From a virus (taxonomy: Duplodnaviria; Caudoviricetes), in the IMG/VR virus record IMGVR_UViG_3300012667_000399, positions 1-30,071 of that record: a stretch of DNA of 30,071 nucleotides; one strand, 5' to 3'. Position numbers and translations under genes: made by a program. Shown piece after piece: positions 372 through 16,903 of this stretch (the stretch's first letter is position 1; each line of letters opens with the position of its first letter). Below the pieces are notes generated by a model that searched no databases, was not told the DNA's origin, and saw nothing but the letters and a program-made list of their open reading frames with translations.

Positions 372-560
372 AATATTGGACGCGGGGGTTTTGATCCGCT
401 TCGCTTAGTGGGGGTCGTTGAATACGTAGGACATCACTCGCAAAAATTTCCCCCAAAAAAATAATTTTTAAAAAAATTTTTTAATACCCCTTAAGGTACA
501 ATATTCCAAACACTAACTTAAAATATCACCGATAGGGTATTTTATTCCAGACATTATTAG

Positions 561-568
561 TATTTTTG
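561..568 (+). promoter_or_regulatory. Bacteroidota -7 promoter box
   Basis: TATTTTTG matches TAnnTTTG, 27 nt before ATG 596. Confidence 0.55.
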
Positions 569-595
569 AAACCTAACTTAATTAACTTTAAATCA

Positions 596-733
596 ATGGC
601 TAAGGCAAAACAAACTAGCACATCATTCGTTGCTAAACCTAAAAGAAAGCGTCCAGGAATTCACGCTAAAACTAAATATTCCTCAATCAAAACTTCAAAA
701 AATTACAAAAAAATTAGTAGGGGTCAGGGATAA
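596..733 (+). CDS. 45-aa very basic phage protein ending RGQG
   Basis: MAKAKQTSTSFVAKPKRKRPGIHAKTKYSSIKTSKNYKKISRGQG*; resembles recalled small basic phage proteins ending in (Y)RGQG. Confidence 0.8.
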   Translation: MAKAKQTSTSFVAKPKRKRPGIHAKTKYSSIKTSKNYKKISRGQG

Positions 734-738
734 TGTTA

Positions 739-746
739 TATATTTG
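739..746 (+). promoter_or_regulatory. Bacteroidota -7 promoter box upstream of the structured non-coding region
   Basis: TATATTTG ends 3 nt before the first stem arm at 750. Confidence 0.6.
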
Positions 747-749
747 TAG

Positions 750-1030
750 TACGAACCGTTATCACTAACGATCACCTCTGAGGGCCAAAAGGTAAGTAAG
801 AGGTCAGAAGTTGGGTTCTAATAATGCACACGAATAGGTAACCAATCCACCACGACATAGGCATTAGGAGTTGTCCCCAATAGTTCGTAAAAATGTTAAA
901 GAGATAAAAGTCCTGGGGTGGGTTATAACTATAGGCTGAAAGAAATGTTCCACCGAAGGCTAAAGACGGCAGTGACTTAAAACTCTTTAATCAACAAAAA
1001 ATCGCTAAGGGGATAATTGTATCTTTTTAA
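750..1030 (+). ncRNA. Putative structured non-coding RNA (or long structured leader), family unknown
   Basis: No ORF in the track; about 42% GC (hand count 751-990). Nested stems 750-756/883-889, 757-761/766-770, 774-779/799-804, 811-815/876-880, 822-827/861-866, 895-903/983-991, 908-915/970-978, 917-922/949-954. Promoter before; weak hairpin plus T-run at about 1008-1028. Confidence 0.6.
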
Positions 1031-1063
1031 GATTTAGTGTAACGGATTTAAAATCAACAACTT

Positions 1064-1162
1064 ATGGAAATTTTACTAATGTTTGCAGCGTCAATTGCAG
1101 CAACAATTACTGTCATCATAAAAATTAATCAGCATTATACTGAGAAGTTTAAGAATAAATAG
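1064..1162 (+). CDS. 32-aa single-pass membrane peptide
   Basis: MEILLMFAASIAATITVIIKINQHYTEKFKNK*; hydrophobic helix plus basic tail; A-rich upstream. Confidence 0.55.
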   Translation: MEILLMFAASIAATITVIIKINQHYTEKFKNK

Positions 1163-1170
1163 TAACTTTG
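1163..1170 (+). promoter_or_regulatory. -7 promoter box, probably giving a leaderless mRNA
   Basis: TAACTTTG followed by 4 nt and ATG 1175. Confidence 0.6.
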
Positions 1171-1174
1171 TGTC

Positions 1175-1408
1175 ATGCCTACAACTCTATACACTGGTGT
1201 TATGGTCAATAAAGACCCAGTATTAAATACTGAAGATAACTACTCGCCTGCAGTAGTAATTACTGACCATGTAATTCAAGTGTTTAACGAGCAAGACCAA
1301 CTTACGGTTGAGTTTACTTACGAAGAGCTTAGAGGTATAATGGGAGTAATGGCTGCTGAACAAGAAAAAGAGCATTTCATTATTCGCGCTAAAATTAAAG
1401 AAAACTAA
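1175..1408 (+). CDS. Hypothetical protein
   Basis: 77-aa ORF with promoter directly upstream, in series with the next gene. Confidence 0.75.
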   Translation: MPTTLYTGVMVNKDPVLNTEDNYSPAVVITDHVIQVFNEQDQLTVEFTYEELRGIMGVMAAEQEKEHFIIRAKIKEN

Positions 1409-4885: not shown

Positions 4886-5379
4886 AAGATCTACTAACAT
4901 TAGCAGAGGGTAAAGTTGAACCATCTCCGTATGCTTTAACTATCCCAGAGTTTAGTAAACTAACAACTAACGAATTATCTTTTGTTTACTTTTTTGTAGA
5001 CCATAGATCTAGTTATGCAGCTTACGAGCAAGATGAGAGACAAGAAATTCTTACTAAAGATTTAAAGATAACAATCACCCCAAAACTTAAAGGGGCTATT
5101 GATAAATACAAAGCATTATCTGAAACTCACGCTATTAAATTGCTTAAGTCTGCACGTATCTCAGTTACTAAATTAGAGAAGTATTTTGAAAATATTGATT
5201 TAACAGAGATGGATGAGAATGGACGGTTGATCTACCAGGCAAAAGACTTAGTTGCTAACTTATCTAAAATGGGGGATGTAGTTGAGGGATTAGATAAACT
5301 AGAAGAATTAGTTAAAAAGCAAACAGAAAAAGATAATCCAAATCGTGGAGGAGTTGTTACTAATAAATACAGTGAATGA
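4882..5379 (+). CDS. Helical protein directly upstream of terL; candidate small terminase
   Basis: ATGA-coupled to terL; helical and coiled-coil; C-terminal NRGG. Role inferred from position only. Confidence 0.5.
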   Translation: MKDLLTLAEGKVEPSPYALTIPEFSKLTTNELSFVYFFVDHRSSYAAYEQDERQEILTKDLKITITPKLKGAIDKYKALSETHAIKLLKSARISVTKLEKYFENIDLTEMDENGRLIYQAKDLVANLSKMGDVVEGLDKLEELVKKQTEKDNPNRGGVVTNKYSE

Positions 5380-7346
5380 TAAAGTTTAAAGATACACACT
5401 TATTTTCCCCAGCATCTACTACATATTTGACCAAAGGGTATTATACCGATGAGAATAAAAACTCTAAAAGGTACTATGAATTTTGGGATGAAGAAAAGCA
5501 TAGATGTTTGTACGGATACGAAGTTAATGGAGTTCACATTACAGGGTTCCATTACTTTTATCTTAACTATTGCGTTATTGATAGGGTTGTAGACGTAGTT
5601 GACCCAGTAACTGGAGAAGAATACTCACAACGTGAACGAACTTTCCCTGCATTTTATGATGGAGATTACGACTACTTTCAATCAATAGAAAAAGCACGTA
5701 AAACTAACAAGCATATTGTAGTACTTAAGGCTCGACGTAAAGGTTATTCATACAAAGCCGCAGCTATGTTAGCTAGAAACTACTACCACTTGCGTAATTC
5801 TAAGAACTTTGTATTTGCATCAGATAAACAATACTTGATTGGTGATGGTATTATGTCTAAAACGTGGGATATTCTTTCGTTTATTGATGACAATACAGCA
5901 TGGACTCAACCAAGAATTAAAGATACTGATATGCATAAGCAGTCAGGATACAAAAAGAACGTAAATGGTGCTGATGTAACCCTAGGTTTTAAGTCTCAGA
6001 TACTAGCAGTGAGTTTAAAAGACGATCCAGACAAAGTCCGTGGTAAAGCAGGTGAGTTAATTTTCTTTGAAGAAGCAGGATCCTTTACAGGGTTATTAAA
6101 AGCTTGGGAAGTTGCTATGCCAACTATGAAACAAGGGTCAAAAACACTTGGAACTATGGTGGCGTTTGGAACTGGTGGAGAAGAAGGACCTGGTTTTGAA
6201 GGACTAGAAGAGTTATTCTACCATCCTGATGCATATGATTGTTTAGCATTTGAAAATGAGTGGGATGCTGGTGCAATGGGCACACAATGTGGATTTTTTC
6301 ACCCTATTTACAAAAACTTAGATGGGTTTATTGACAAAGATGGGAATAGTGACACCAATGCAGCTATAGAATTTGAGTTAGAACAGCGAGAAAAGAAGAA
6401 AAAAGGTAATGATGCTAAGTCATTTGACCAATATGTAGCAGAACATGCCTTTACTCCGCAAGAAGCTACACTTCAAGTTACTGGAAATACATTTGATGTG
6501 ACATCTTTAAAAGAACAGTACAATAGAGTGATAGCAAACAACCTAGATGCTATTGGAGTTGCAGGAGAATTGTACTATACCTCTGATGGTAAGGTAGATT
6601 TTCGTGGTAATTCCCCACATAGACCTATTACTAAGTTCCCACATAGGAAAGATGATGACGTAACAGGTGCAGTTGTAATCTACGAAACCCCATATAAGAC
6701 TGATGTAGAACAAGTTACCCCAAAAAACATGTACATAATTGGGCATGACCCTTACGCGCAAGCGGGTACGTCAGGATCTTTGGGGGCAGCATACGTTATT
6801 AAAGTCCCAAATAACCTATCTAAACCAGATGACTTAATTGTTGCATCATATGTAGGCCGTCCACAGACTCAAGATGAGTATAATAGAAATCTGTTTATGC
6901 TAGCAGAATACTATAACGCAAAAATAGGATTTGAGAATGACCGAGGCGAAGTTATACCTTATGCTAAACGTTTTAGAAAGTTACATTTACTACAAGAAGA
7001 GTTTGAAATGCTAGATAAACGTGATCTTCGTAGTAAAACAGTTAAGCGCCAGTATGGAATGCACATGACTGAGCAACGTAAAAACCAAGGAGAACTTTAT
7101 ATTAGGGATTGGCTGATAGATAGTAGAGGATCTGACGAAGACGGTAATGTTACTCTTAATATGCATAAGATTTATGACCCAGGGTTACTGCAAGAGTTAA
7201 TTAAGTTTAATCGTAAAGGCAACTTTGACCGATCTATGGCGTTAATGATAGCAATGTACCATATGCGAGAGTTATATAACAAAGAAGTCTATGTCCAAAT
7301 CAATGATAATTCAGCAAATGATTGGTTTGATAAAAATTATAAGTAA
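5376..7346 (+). CDS. terL: Terminase large subunit
   Basis: Walker A LKARRKGYSY, Walker B IFFEEAG, coupling motif FGTGG, nuclease IIGHDPY and NFDRSMA; upstream of portal. Confidence 0.95.
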   Translation: MIKFKDTHLFSPASTTYLTKGYYTDENKNSKRYYEFWDEEKHRCLYGYEVNGVHITGFHYFYLNYCVIDRVVDVVDPVTGEEYSQRERTFPAFYDGDYDYFQSIEKARKTNKHIVVLKARRKGYSYKAAAMLARNYYHLRNSKNFVFASDKQYLIGDGIMSKTWDILSFIDDNTAWTQPRIKDTDMHKQSGYKKNVNGADVTLGFKSQILAVSLKDDPDKVRGKAGELIFFEEAGSFTGLLKAWEVAMPTMKQGSKTLGTMVAFGTGGEEGPGFEGLEELFYHPDAYDCLAFENEWDAGAMGTQCGFFHPIYKNLDGFIDKDGNSDTNAAIEFELEQREKKKKGNDAKSFDQYVAEHAFTPQEATLQVTGNTFDVTSLKEQYNRVIANNLDAIGVAGELYYTSDGKVDFRGNSPHRPITKFPHRKDDDVTGAVVIYETPYKTDVEQVTPKNMYIIGHDPYAQAGTSGSLGAAYVIKVPNNLSKPDDLIVASYVGRPQTQDEYNRNLFMLAEYYNAKIGFENDRGEVIPYAKRFRKLHLLQEEFEMLDKRDLRSKTVKRQYGMHMTEQRKNQGELYIRDWLIDSRGSDEDGNVTLNMHKIYDPGLLQELIKFNRKGNFDRSMALMIAMYHMRELYNKEVYVQINDNSANDWFDKNYK

Positions 7347-7387: not shown

Positions 7388-9598
7388 ATGTACGGACAAG
7401 CCCATATACCTAAACAAAGAGTTCCACTAAGTCAGAAAGATGAGAAGTGGAAAAAAGATTGCGTAGATGCATTTATTAATTTATCTAAATTTGGTATCAG
7501 TGAGCGTCGTGCATATTTGCGATCTTTGTATGACTACTATAATGGTGTAATAGATGAAGAAGACTATAACTATGTACTTAAACCTTACGGAAAAACTAGA
7601 AAGAATTTCCCAACTAAGCTACGAAACTACCCAATCATTAAACCCATTATTGATTTACTTCTTGGAGAGAAATCTAAGCGTCCTTTAGAGTATACAGTAA
7701 CCGTACAGAATGCTGATGCTATTAGTCAGAAAGAAGAACAGCTACAAAACTTGCTTTTAAATAACATTCGTACTCAATTCTTAAATGAATTAATTAAACA
7801 AGGGCAAGTTCAAGGAGAACAACAAGAAGTTCCGCTTCCTAAACAAGTTCAAGAAGAATTCAATAGATCTTATGTAGATTCTAGAGCAATTAGAGGACAA
7901 CATGCATTGAATTATATTATGAATCAACAAGAGATTTATGATAAGTTTCAAAAACAGTTTTTCCATTTTTTAATTGCAGGGGAGTGCTACTCACACAAAG
8001 GAGTTAGACGTAATGAACCATTTTATGAAGTCATTAATCCATTAGATGTTGACTTTGATAAAGATCCAGATATCGATTTTGTAGAAGATGGGGATTGGGC
8101 AATCATTAGAAAGTTCTCACATGCATCTACTATTATTGATGCTTATGGAGAGTTCTTAACTGATGAACAAATCTTAGAATTAGAATCTCCTACTCATACA
8201 TCTGCAGAAGCTTATCTTTTGTATCGTGCAGAAGCTTCAGGAGCTGATGATAATATCTATCGTAACAGATTGATAGAAGTTGTAACGGTATACTGGAAGT
8301 CAAGAAAAAGAATTGGGTTTTTAAATTACATAGATCCCAATACGGGAACTCAAGAAGTTAAAGAAGTTGATGAAACTTTTAAGTTAACCAAAGAGATGAA
8401 AGAACAGATGGGAGCATCTGTAGAATGGGAGTGGGTTAACGAAGCATGGGAAGGAGTTAGAATTGATAGAAGATTCTACATTAAAATGAATCCTCTAGCT
8501 ACTCAAAGAACTAGCCTAGACAATCCATCAATTTGCAAACTACCAATTAATGGAAGAAAATACTCTGATATTAATTCTCAACCTATCTCTTTAGTTAGTC
8601 TTGGAATTCCATATCAGTTAAATTACAATATTTACAAGTACCGTATGGAGTTAGCAATAGCCAGATCTAAGGATATTGTTGCTCAATTTGATATTAACAT
8701 GATCCCTAAAAATTGGGACATGGATAAGTTTATGTACTATGTAGAGGGTACAGGTATTGCTTGGGTAGACTACAACAAAGAGGGAATACAACTATCCCCC
8801 CAGCACCAATCCGTGTTGGATATGTCAATTAAGACGATCTCACAATATCTTACCCTCTTAGAATCGATAATGGTTGAGTGGGAAAAATTGAGTGGTGTTA
8901 ATAGACAACGTCAAGGATCAGTTGGAACATATGAAGGAAAAGCTACATCTCAACAAGCCATTGTCCAATCTTCTCATATAACAGAAGATATATTTAGAAA
9001 GTTCTCAAACTTTGAGCAACGTGAATTACAAGGGTTAATCGACTACTCTAAAGTAGCTTGGATTAACGGCAAGAAAGGAATGTTTGTAATGCCAGACAAT
9101 ACTTTAGCTGAATTGGATGTTGAAGGATTAGGACATTTAGAGTCTGAATACGGAATCTTTGTTTCTGATGCTGGTAAAGATGTAGAAAAACTTCAAGCTA
9201 TTAGAGGATTTGCACAAGCCGCTGTACAAAATGGTCTTCCAATGTCAGCAGCTATCTCAATCTTTGAAAGTGATAGTTTCCCACAAATTAAAGATAAAAT
9301 TAGACAAGCTGAAAAAGCTCAAGAAGAATTGCAGAAAGCTCAACAAGAAGCACAGACTCAACAAAGTCAACAACAAATGCAAATTCAACAAGCTCAACTT
9401 GAAGCTCAACAATTGGATAAAGAAAAAGATCGTCAATTACAAATTGAACTTGCTCTTATTGCAGCTGAAGGTGATGATAAAAAGAATTCTGCATCATTAG
9501 AAAAAATGATGAGAGACTTTGAAATTAAACAAAAACAATTGGAACTTAAAGAGCAAGAAATTAATAATAAACTTACTCAAAATAATACCCCAGAATAA
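7388..9598 (+). CDS. Portal protein (crAss-like)
   Basis: 736 aa after terL; NYPIIKPIIDLLLGE, SGVNRQRQG, Q-rich C-terminal coiled-coil barrel. Confidence 0.92.
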   Translation: MYGQAHIPKQRVPLSQKDEKWKKDCVDAFINLSKFGISERRAYLRSLYDYYNGVIDEEDYNYVLKPYGKTRKNFPTKLRNYPIIKPIIDLLLGEKSKRPLEYTVTVQNADAISQKEEQLQNLLLNNIRTQFLNELIKQGQVQGEQQEVPLPKQVQEEFNRSYVDSRAIRGQHALNYIMNQQEIYDKFQKQFFHFLIAGECYSHKGVRRNEPFYEVINPLDVDFDKDPDIDFVEDGDWAIIRKFSHASTIIDAYGEFLTDEQILELESPTHTSAEAYLLYRAEASGADDNIYRNRLIEVVTVYWKSRKRIGFLNYIDPNTGTQEVKEVDETFKLTKEMKEQMGASVEWEWVNEAWEGVRIDRRFYIKMNPLATQRTSLDNPSICKLPINGRKYSDINSQPISLVSLGIPYQLNYNIYKYRMELAIARSKDIVAQFDINMIPKNWDMDKFMYYVEGTGIAWVDYNKEGIQLSPQHQSVLDMSIKTISQYLTLLESIMVEWEKLSGVNRQRQGSVGTYEGKATSQQAIVQSSHITEDIFRKFSNFEQRELQGLIDYSKVAWINGKKGMFVMPDNTLAELDVEGLGHLESEYGIFVSDAGKDVEKLQAIRGFAQAAVQNGLPMSAAISIFESDSFPQIKDKIRQAEKAQEELQKAQQEAQTQQSQQQMQIQQAQLEAQQLDKEKDRQLQIELALIAAEGDDKKNSASLEKMMRDFEIKQKQLELKEQEINNKLTQNNTPE

Positions 9599-12299: not shown

Positions 12300-13724
12300 A
12301 TGGCTCTAATGCAAGTTCTTAAAACGTACTATAACGATGCCCAAATGACCGACACTAACTCGTTGGTTAACGCACTTATGGAACGTCCAGAGGAGATCTC
12401 TCCTATCATTACTCACTTGGCTGGTCGTGAGGAAAAGAAATTTCCATTGTCTTTCTTAACTGAAGGTGTTGGAAACACTCGTTCAATTGATCGCTACGAA
12501 TATGAATATCGTGTTAAAACTCACGAAATTAATGTTCGTCCTGTTATATCTGCTGCTCCTGGTGGAGTTGTTGGTGCTGGTGGTGCAATGTTTACATTGA
12601 CTTTTCCTGACAAATGGTTTATTTTCCCTTACACTTTGGTATCTCAATCTGGTACTCTTGCTCGTATTATGAATGAGCCAGTTGCTGATGGTGGTGGATG
12701 GAAATACACTTTGCGTTTGGTATCTCCTGATTCACCTTCTGTTTCTGTTGCTGATGCTTCTCCTGGTGCTTTGTGGGGTATGATGTATGCTAACGTAGGA
12801 ATTGACTTCTCTCGTGGTAATGCATCTAACTGGACTGCTCCTGGTTTGGTTCGTAGCAAAATTGGTACTGTACGTAAATCTTACCATTTCTCTGGAAATG
12901 CTAAAGATTATGTTGCTCAATTTGAATTGCCTTTGAAAGAAGGAAGTAAGACTAAATTGTGGATGGATTACGAAGAGTACCGTCACATGTTGAAGTTCAA
13001 AGAAGAGTGTGAAATGTACTACTGGTATGGTCAAAAGACTCATGATGCAAATGGTGTTAGCACTATGTTGGATGAGAATGGTCAACCTGTAGTTTCAGGT
13101 CCTGGTTTATTGGAGCAAATCATTAACAAAGACACTTTCTCTAACTTGACTCAAGCTAAGATTGAAGAAGTTATCGGTGATTTGTTCTATGGTATGACTG
13201 ATGCTACTGATAAACAAGTAACTCTTTACACTGGTATCGGTGGAGCTCGTGAGTTTGACCGTGCTTTGAAAACTTACTATTCTAATAATCCTTATTTGCA
13301 AACTACTCAACCTACCTTTATTACTGGTTCTGGTCGTAGTTTGGGAATCACTGGTTATTTTACTAGTTATGAGCACGTTGATGGTCATAGAGTTAACGTA
13401 GTTAAATCTCCTTTGTTTGATCACGGTCCTGTTGCTCAAGCTTCTAAAAAGCACCCAGTTTCTGGTTTGCCTTTGGAATCTTATCGCATGGTGTTTGTTG
13501 ACCAATCTACTTATGATGGTGAAAACAACTTGCAAATGATCAACAAGAAAGGTCGTGAATTGTTGCGTTGGTGTGTTGCAGGTTCAGTTGTTCCAAAAGG
13601 ATTCACTGAAACTGATACTCGCGCAAGTGATATTGATGGTGCTTCTGTGCATATGTTGAAGACTGCTGGTATTTTGCTTCGTCGCTTCGATACTAGCTTG
13701 GATCTTCAGTGTGTTGCATCTTAA
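12300..13724 (+). CDS. Major capsid protein (crAss-like, HK97 fold)
   Basis: 474 aa; MTDTNSL, FPLSFLTEG, GPGLLEQI, LYTGIGG, HPVSGLPLESYRM; biased codons (CGT, GGT, TTG); terminator follows. Confidence 0.92.
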   Translation: MALMQVLKTYYNDAQMTDTNSLVNALMERPEEISPIITHLAGREEKKFPLSFLTEGVGNTRSIDRYEYEYRVKTHEINVRPVISAAPGGVVGAGGAMFTLTFPDKWFIFPYTLVSQSGTLARIMNEPVADGGGWKYTLRLVSPDSPSVSVADASPGALWGMMYANVGIDFSRGNASNWTAPGLVRSKIGTVRKSYHFSGNAKDYVAQFELPLKEGSKTKLWMDYEEYRHMLKFKEECEMYYWYGQKTHDANGVSTMLDENGQPVVSGPGLLEQIINKDTFSNLTQAKIEEVIGDLFYGMTDATDKQVTLYTGIGGAREFDRALKTYYSNNPYLQTTQPTFITGSGRSLGITGYFTSYEHVDGHRVNVVKSPLFDHGPVAQASKKHPVSGLPLESYRMVFVDQSTYDGENNLQMINKKGRELLRWCVAGSVVPKGFTETDTRASDIDGASVHMLKTAGILLRRFDTSLDLQCVAS

Positions 13725-13744: not shown

Positions 13745-13780
13745 GTAGGGGGGAGTTAATCCTCCCCTCTTCTTTTCCTT
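13745..13780 (+). terminator. Rho-independent terminator after the capsid gene
   Basis: AGGGGGGAG-TTAAT-CCTCCCCT G/C stem followed by CTTCTTTT. Confidence 0.7.
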
Positions 13781-16848: not shown

Positions 16849-16861
16849 ATTTAAACTAATT

Positions 16862-16891
16862 AAAAAGCCTCACAATTTGGTGGGGCTTTTT
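16862..16891 (+). terminator. Rho-independent terminator, potentially bidirectional
   Basis: AAAAAGCCTCAC-AATTTG-GTGGGGCTTTTT. Confidence 0.85.
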
Positions 16892-16895
16892 ATCT

Positions 16896-16903
16896 TATAT
16901 TTG
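16896..16903 (+). promoter_or_regulatory. -7 promoter box restarting transcription after the terminator
   Basis: TATATTTG, 16 nt before ATG 16920. Confidence 0.65.

Follow-up and report, generated by a model that had tools for sequence, protein, structure and literature searches.

A conserved, covarying two-domain RNA with a pause-like tail at the head of phage late modules: a candidate leader acting on paused RNA polymerase

Organization of the locus

The window, i.e. the whole stretch of 30,071 nt to which all window positions refer, is a linear virus record of 30 kb that is 35% complete. It encodes a crAss-type capsid protein and a terminase downstream of the RNA described here and on the same strand (Table 1), and it represents a crAss-like phage. 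Such phages occur in large numbers in the human gut and also in water. The first-pass annotation, which was made from the sequence alone, had placed a structured RNA in a gap of raised G+C content at the head of the late module. This placement was borne out. Between positions 734 and 1063 only ORFs of fewer than 30 codons occur, and the G+C content is 42-43% in the core (150-nt windows) and 38.7% over positions 739-1030, compared to 23.6% at positions 451-590 and 33.3% in the whole window. The promoter box that had been claimed directly upstream is also present (Table 1). It conforms to TAnnTTTG, which we take to be the Bacteroidota -7 type consensus, and this box or a variant of it is located 5' of the RNA in the close clade as well as in crAss001, cr128_1 and cr111_1. 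Further boxes and two intrinsic terminators occur within the late region. The terminator behind the 338-aa gene is immediately followed by the box at 16896, and the one behind the capsid gene has no such box after it.

The gene directly upstream of the RNA encodes a 45-aa basic protein, which was considered as an N-like partner and rejected: the RNA is found at only 10 of 80 loci harboring the protein, and the protein is encoded upstream of only 9 of 80 RNA representatives. The protein is widespread, with 210 viral matches, of which 80 were kept, in varied gene contexts. Further upstream, the stretch at positions 415-500 lies at the strand switch and contains a G-run with A/T tracts and C-runs behind it. 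Similar stretches occur 5' of the RNA in relatives, and the stretch may be a packaging start or a genome end. On the minus strand, a hairpin and a tag-like stretch at 190-370 were examined as a possible tmRNA and turned out to be a 59-aa ORF (192-371) that ends in a GC hairpin (187-204) and has no Pfam or PHROG match.

Table 1. Features of the window around the RNA and in the downstream late module
Feature	Position	Strand	Remarks
Gene for 45-aa small basic protein	596-733	+	phrog_516; directly upstream of the RNA; neighbour, not dedicated partner
Promoter box TAnnTTTG	739-746	+	TATATTTG; presumed Bacteroidota -7 type; predicted start near 750
Domain 1, multi-way junction	750-889	+	closed by P1 (750-756/883-889; 97% of cells paired)
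Domain 1, P2	757-770	+	
Domain 1, P3	774-779/799-804	+	100% of cells paired in 41 relatives
Domain 1, junction YAGAM	805-809	+	
Domain 1, P4	810-815/876-881	+	100% of cells paired in 41 relatives
Variable P4 extension	822-866	+	loop ACAUAG at 855-860
Near-invariant UGUCCCC	872-878	+	domain 1
Domain 2, P6a	895-903/983-991	+	
Domain 2, conserved internal loop	903-907	+	UAUAA/GAARU in the family; GAUAA here
Domain 2, P6b	908-915/970-978	+	
Domain 2, P7	917-921/950-954	+	97.5% of cells paired
Purine-rich bulge, clade-specific	957-969	+	domain 2; missing in minimal members
Conserved tail, predicted RNA-polymerase pause	1008-1024	+	G-11 = 1010, G-10 = 1011, T-3 = 1018, G-2 = 1019, Y-1 = 1020, +1 = A1021, then three pyrimidines
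Downstream late module	1064-30069	+	lysis and GroES-like genes, terminase, portal, capsid, tail-region genes
Terminase large subunit	5376-7346	+	within the late module
Probable portal	7388-9598	+	assigned by position
crAss-type major capsid	12300-13724	+	PF23898
Internal TAnnTTTG boxes in the late module	1163, 3336, 7344/7374, 11112, 16896	+	
Intrinsic terminators in the late region	13747-13770; 16861-16892		after the capsid gene; after the 338-aa gene

Fold and covariation of the RNA

The region from position 750 to approximately 1020 is a conserved, covarying RNA that consists of two domains (Table 1). All helices that had been proposed from the sequence were recovered in the minimum-energy fold: P1, P3, P6a and P6b as listed in the table, P2 as 757-761/766-770, P4 as 811-815/876-880 and the stem 822-827/861-866 of its extension. 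An unusually low folding energy, which had been suggested as a check, was not found (z-score of -1.15, 28 of 200 shuffles folding equally well). Covariation, the other proposed check, is strong. In an alignment of 41 relatives from the window clade 88.1% of the cells are paired, compared to 72.8% in shuffles, and none of 500 shuffles reaches the observed value. Changes on both sides occur at 26 of 38 pairs and include P1, P3 and P4, and slid-structure controls are paired at only 35-53%.

The two lower helices of domain 2 show only 47-53% paired cells in this alignment, because it is out of register there. Anchored by its flanking motifs, P6a is paired in 93.6% versus 56.6% in shuffles (57 of the 88 representatives of the family, those with unique anchors). 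For P3 the values are 99% and 77% in the 71 of 88 representatives with an AYC anchor, a choice of anchor that is partly circular. The shared core has the order AYC-P3-YAGAM-P4-UA-P1, followed by an A-rich linker, P6a, the UAUAA/GAARU internal loop and P6b. Toward its apex, domain 2 is clade-specific, including the bulge at 957-969. A GUC:GGC pseudoknot and a presumed likeness of the bulge to 23S rRNA were both dropped, as the bulge is missing from minimal members. No pseudoknot is supported by the covarying fold, which is nested, and T-loop-like UGANA motifs are not enriched in domain 2 (20 of 63, with 16.8 expected).

Four members (L363, L368, L372 and L430) harbor an ORF of 44-73 codons within the P4 loop, which leaves the core unharmed. 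Three of these ORFs are Cys-rich and two contain a CDGSH motif, presumably resembling iron-sulfur zinc fingers. In L363 and L430 the reading frame enters the P4/P1 strands.

Distribution of the family

The first homologues were obtained from loci retrieved via two flanking proteins. A pattern of invariant bases matched 67 viral loci, one of which (L222) was spurious on inspection. Relaxed patterns gave further loci; a profile match was present at 102 of the 114 viral ones and at 116 of the 118 from metagenomes. A pattern restricted to domain 1 matched at least 120 loci, approximately 230 being estimated. Filtering left at least 236 distinct members, with 88 representatives below 85% identity; counts of P4 on the 236-member set are circular, as the filter demanded P4 pairing. 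Scanning GTDB with the window-clade pattern gave 13 matches, of which 11 were chance matches and two were real, both on phage-like contigs in metagenome bins.

With the window RNA as query, blastn gave no match among 50,697 phage records, and members in named phages were reached solely via profile steps. They include the gut Steigviridae crAss001, cr111_1 and cr128_1. In crAss001 a promoter box (651), a domain-2 match (820-914) and the tail (966-984) are located at the head of the late strand. The domain-2 match has an E value of 1e-5 to 5.5e-5 with a subclade profile that was built without crAss001, the subclade itself being picked after crAss001 had been seen. The cr111_1 member matches profiles of environmental members with E values of 2e-5 and 3e-5 and has kept the canonical P4, and the profile match in cr128_1 has an E value of 0.002. 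Across 29 records, the region is 98-100% identical. A search for the family RNA in phi14:2, crAss002 and Fpv3 detected no member.

In Kehishuvirus 'tikkala', bajarodcaudo virus 1 and cr85_1, the late-promoter slot is occupied by a second conserved non-coding sequence (L713:921-1212, L731:412-705 and L732:113-470). It is unrelated to the family by profile search, has no Rfam match and is possibly a second, swappable RNA class. In 'tikkala' the RNA in this slot ends in the same pause-like tail as the family described here.

A pause-like tail in fixed register

The first-pass annotation had noted a hairpin with a T-run at positions 1008-1028. This hairpin is not a canonical terminator; the conserved part is a G-run in fixed register with a T-R-Y-R motif. 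The tail motif was recovered de novo by a random-start motif search downstream of P4 in the 88 representatives. Among these tails, G occurs at -11 in 87 and at -10 in 86, T at -3 in 81, a purine at -2 in 73 (G in 33), a pyrimidine at -1 in 87 and a purine at +1 in 87 (A in 56, G in 31), followed by pyrimidines at +2, +3 and +4 in 84, 78 and 80; as the sites were selected by their own profile, these counts are partly circular. The tail scores above the 95th percentile of shuffled regions in 83 of 88 cases, and in L472 and L564, which have just two G, these are placed exactly at -11 and -10.

The consensus of the elemental pause is g-11 G-10 t-3 g-2 Y-1 G+1 according to the accessible text of PMC11077087, and the polymerase of B. 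fragilis pauses at this consensus, as stated in the accessible part of PMC11685472. At least five of the six positions are matched in 48 of 88 tails, compared to 2 of 88 in a register shifted by two. The tail of the window matches five positions (1010-1021) and is the top-scoring site of the window on both strands. The distance from the end of P6a to position -1 could be measured in 54 cases; it never falls below 27 nt and is 27-34 nt in 20 of them. Against a pause it has to be noted that A outnumbers G at +1 and that G is found at -2 in a minority of the tails. The pause consensus does not account for the pyrimidines at +2 to +4, for which pairing with the G-run of the tail is conceivable; they are 90-94% pairing-compatible but show no covariation.

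Intrinsic terminators were not found within positions 400-1300 of the window, and a T-run (at least six T in eight positions) occurs at the tail in only 15 of 75 representatives. Covariation is lacking for pairing of the tail to the UAUA loop, to the CCCC of P4 or within its own hairpin, as 171, 165 and 494 of 500 shuffles, respectively, reach the observed values. This absence of covariation, together with the occurrence of the same tail behind the unrelated 'tikkala' RNA, argues for a pause signal. The tail was also considered as a ribosome-binding site and as the -33 box of a following promoter. Both were ruled out, as neither the distance to the ATG (0-109 nt) nor that to the next box (3-113 nt) is fixed.

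Genomic context in other phages

In 68 of 75 representatives an ORF on the same strand follows within 160 nt of the tail. The distance is at most 30 nt in 31 of the 75, so that the RNA is likely co-transcribed with the next gene. The identity of this first gene varies among members, as does that of the upstream genes, and 10 (strict search) to 24 (loose search) of the 75 have a promoter box between the tail and the ATG. The RNA is often located at a strand switch near a contig end, immediately before terS/terL. In crAss001 the record begins approximately 0.65 kb from it, and in one terminal-repeat genome the end is approximately 0.35 kb away.

The crAss capsid was found in seven of 15 tested genomes, and in all seven the RNA is on the capsid strand, 10-22 kb upstream. 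It is absent from six complete or nearly complete genomes of 50-58 kb, which also carry the RNA. In two of these, non-crAss phages of 52-55 kb, the RNA heads terS, terL, portal and capsid genes, with the gene of a protein small terminase directly behind it (G008), or terL and portal (G015). Inspection of these two genomes revealed sigma-70-like boxes before the RNA, the regex-based classing of promoters being too coarse for counts. The usual place at the head and packaging module has an exception. In a 143-kb genome (G005) the RNA is positioned in a replication region, between a helicase and a DNA polymerase region, and not before virion genes. In a 102-kb fragment it lies ahead of a gene with weak endolysin matches.

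Expression in RNA-library contigs

Eight of 24 listed runs were examined, namely seven RNA runs from seven studies and run X24, whose kind is not on record. The RNA was covered by a contig in all seven RNA runs. None of these contigs extends upstream of position 758, and in six runs they are confined to 758 to approximately 1011; the contig of X2 extends to 1058. X1 contains a second contig of low depth at 969-1149, and X24 covers 586-736 and 803-1192. The containment within the RNA has a P value of approximately 0.0007 under a crude uniform model and is a weak hint. Assembled contigs cannot give ends or levels, the runs had been retrieved with words from this region, and absent contig cover of the flanking genes was not counted as proof. 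A discrete RNA of about 240-280 nt had been proposed initially. The two-domain RNA and its occurrence in RNA libraries agree with this proposal, but a purely discrete, terminator-ended form does not fit the absence of an intrinsic terminator and the short distance to the next gene in many members.

Relation to known RNAs

The RNA is undescribed and is not put, EAR, opsX, RNase P RNA, tmRNA or a member of any Rfam family. At gathering score, Rfam gave nothing relevant in the window or in 20 further loci, mostly family members, and only tRNAs in the crAss001 stretch. An Rfam search of window positions 400-1300 at E values up to 10 gave chance matches only, and ARAGORN found no tRNA or tmRNA gene in the window, as expected from the first inspection. 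The strand leading from the junction into P4 presumably resembles conserved region V of RNase P RNA. RNase P was rejected, as the P4 pseudoknot expected between regions I and V is absent, the strand instead pairs with a downstream strand in a nested helix, and Rfam gave no match. HDV-like/theta and other self-cleaving ribozymes were likewise rejected, as Rfam gave no match at E values up to 10 and the strands that might form a pseudoknot are confined to particular clades. The literature searches found no account of the RNA. Four searched files among the viral candidate-RNA supplements of PMC10690425 contain no motif match; pieces of the RNA may be among the unnamed candidates of 29-151 nt in that work, whose supplements were searchable in part only.

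To our knowledge, very few cases of elongation control by an RNA alone exist, namely put and EAR. The put elements of phage HK022 (putL and putR) are, in the accessible text of PMC9378689, cis elements of a phage that follow a promoter of the host polymerase and have two structural domains. The RNA described here shares this position, ahead of the genes that it would control, and the two-domain layout, and no dedicated phage protein was found for it. As further stated there, putL acts in a distance-dependent manner on a pause 21 nt downstream, without a dedicated phage protein. Here, a pause-like sequence follows at a minimum spacing of 27 nt. The differences are considerable. A put element comprises approximately 70 nt in two simple stems and serves lambdoid early genes (PMC9378689, accessible text), whereas the present RNA comprises approximately 200-320 nt (270 nt in the window), combines a multi-way junction with a domain containing an internal loop, has no visible sequence in common with put and mostly heads late modules. 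Moreover, HK022 put binds the zinc-binding domain of beta' and suppresses termination without a phage protein, whereas contact with the polymerase is only predicted here.

Likenesses to other systems are more limited. The opsX/UpxY system of Bacteroides and ops/RfaH of E. coli likewise have a consensus-like pause in the 5' leader of a long operon (accessible part of PMC11685472), a likeness that here exists at sequence level. They differ in that a large conserved RNA, and not a simple pause hairpin, precedes the pause here, and in that a NusG-family gene (PF02357) was found in none of five genomes tested (controls were detected in 10 of 14), which indicates that the phage does not supply a UpxY/RfaH-like protein. 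The EAR element of B. subtilis is named as an RNA-based antiterminator in the accessible text of PMC8632103 and is likewise a larger structured RNA proposed for processive antitermination; however, it belongs to the chromosomal eps operon and not to a phage, and the RNA described here has no Rfam match.

The late leader of lambdoid phages comprises the promoter PR', a leader RNA of approximately 194 nt, the terminator tR' and the protein Q. As in the present case, a host promoter heads the late operon, and the leader RNA may accumulate; unlike there, no intrinsic terminator is present here and the fold of the leader is conserved and covarying. ROOL, GOLLD, OLE and raiA are large covarying RNAs of unassigned function, some of them phage-borne. 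The present RNA differs from these by its fixed leader position and pause-like tail, and has no Rfam match in the window and 20 loci, mostly of the family.

Possible function

We tentatively propose, as a reading that could well be correct, that the nascent leader RNA folds on a paused polymerase and renders it resistant to termination, comparable to HK022 put though with an unrelated fold. Host RNA polymerase would start at the promoter heading the virion operon and produce the two-domain leader. As soon as domain 2 had emerged, the polymerase would be paused by the tail, and the folded nascent RNA would bind the elongation complex, alone or together with a host or phage protein, and enable it to resist termination all along the extended operon behind it. 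From unconverted polymerases, a stable RNA of approximately 270 nt would be released and accumulate. A put-like nascent RNA is the simplest account of the leader position, the pause-like tail in fixed register, its minimum spacing and the lack of a terminator. The intrinsic terminators in the late region, one of them without a following promoter box, argue for read-through, and the ORFs in the P4 loop that leave the core intact suit an element that is folded only briefly during transcription. Of the roles listed in the first-pass annotation, a regulator of late expression fits best, and packaging, sponge, decoy and replication functions fit less well.

Several observations speak against this proposal. 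Internal promoters occur every few kb in the late region of the window, and together with the promoter boxes between tail and first gene in some members they suggest that long-range read-through may be dispensable there. With approximately four times the size of put and many invariant junction bases, the RNA exceeds the known need of an antiterminator. The G005 member is not located before virion genes, and phi14:2, crAss002 and Fpv3 manage without a detectable member. Contigs restricted to the RNA are also expected from a free RNA.

A free, abundant late RNA that acts in trans is the main rival explanation, which we regard as rather unlikely. Such an RNA might serve as ribonucleoprotein scaffold, protein sponge or anti-defence decoy, and its tail would set the 3' end by pausing with release or by processing, or fold back on the core. 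The containment of the contigs in six of seven RNA runs, the separate promoter box behind the tail in some members and the many invariant junction bases are consistent with this, and phi14:2, in which no family member was found, produces abundant unexplained intergenic RNAs according to the accessible text of a preprint (10.1101/2020.03.07.982082). However, the contigs show neither ends nor levels and come from runs selected by words of this region, and those of X1 and X2 continue beyond the tail. The close first ATG, the lack of an intrinsic terminator and the translated ORFs that enter P4/P1 in some members also disagree with a free RNA. An RNA tied to the genome end, either a pRNA-like part of the packaging motor or an R-loop primer for replication made at the pause, is improbable, even though a two-domain junction fold and a location at a strand switch near contig ends, directly before terS/terL, would suit it. 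The pRNA of phi29 forms intermolecular loop-loop pairings and is a motor part in place of a small terminase. The RNA described here often lies near genome ends, but a protein small terminase follows it in G008 and inspection revealed no covarying loop-loop pairing. Furthermore, one member is located in a replication region, and record ends may be curator-set.

That the RNA is a ribozyme, or an element that processes the late transcript by cutting or capping its 5' end, is very unlikely. The size of the RNA, the invariant junction bases and an end near the first ATG in many members are compatible with such a role, as are ORF insertions in a peripheral loop, which also occur in self-splicing introns. 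Yet the nested fold and the lack of Rfam ribozyme matches argue against it, and in minimal members UGUC and the bulge at 957-969, which look like candidate catalytic motifs in the window clade, are variable or missing. Least probable of all is a riboswitch or attenuator that senses a ligand, with domain 1 as the binding site of a small molecule or signal nucleotide and the pause buying time for the decision. The invariant junction of domain 1, the leader position and the pause-like site would be expected for this function, but no conserved switch between terminator and antiterminator or at a ribosome site is present, an exchange between the G-run and CCCC lacks covariation and fails in members with two G, and the downstream genes have no metabolic theme.

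Middle and late genes of crAss-like phages are thought to be read by the host polymerase from similar promoters, and in crAss001 middle genes start 10-30 min and late genes 30-60 min after infection (accessible text of PMC8375218 and 10.1101/2020.03.07.982082). The accessible parts of PMC8375218 and of the phi14:2 preprint describe no late switch for these phages. A leader RNA with a built-in pause would be a concrete candidate for this switch, testable in crAss001 and its host Bacteroides intestinalis. If the RNA instead is free, it represents a new family of large ornate RNAs that has hundreds of members and can be studied in a cultured phage. It is conceivable, though doubtful, that a widespread, undescribed class of large phage RNAs seizes the host polymerase at a built-in pause and switches on late genes without a phage protein. 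Such RNAs would be present in crAss001, would work with the polymerases of different hosts (behind Bacteroidota-type promoters in crAss-like phages and sigma-70-like promoters in the two inspected non-crAss phages) and could be replaced by a second RNA that is unrelated to them.

Some further observations concern the surroundings of the RNA and matches to its tail. L237 and L242 harbor additional hairpin-rich non-coding sequence 3' of the tail. A small basic protein is common to the window phage (25034-25300) and a 52-kb non-crAss phage (L734:12301-12546), where it is encoded near the RNA and terS. The best match to the tail profile in the phi14:2 genome (16.4 bits; NC_021806, approximately 97,400-97,505, plus strand; L718:18686) is located in the g109-g110 gap opposite the late genes, approximately 50 nt behind a rightward promoter-like motif and with no family RNA before it. 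The second-best match of the window (16.3 bits; 8782-8800, minus strand) lies within the probable portal gene in antisense orientation and belongs to a hairpin with a T-run.
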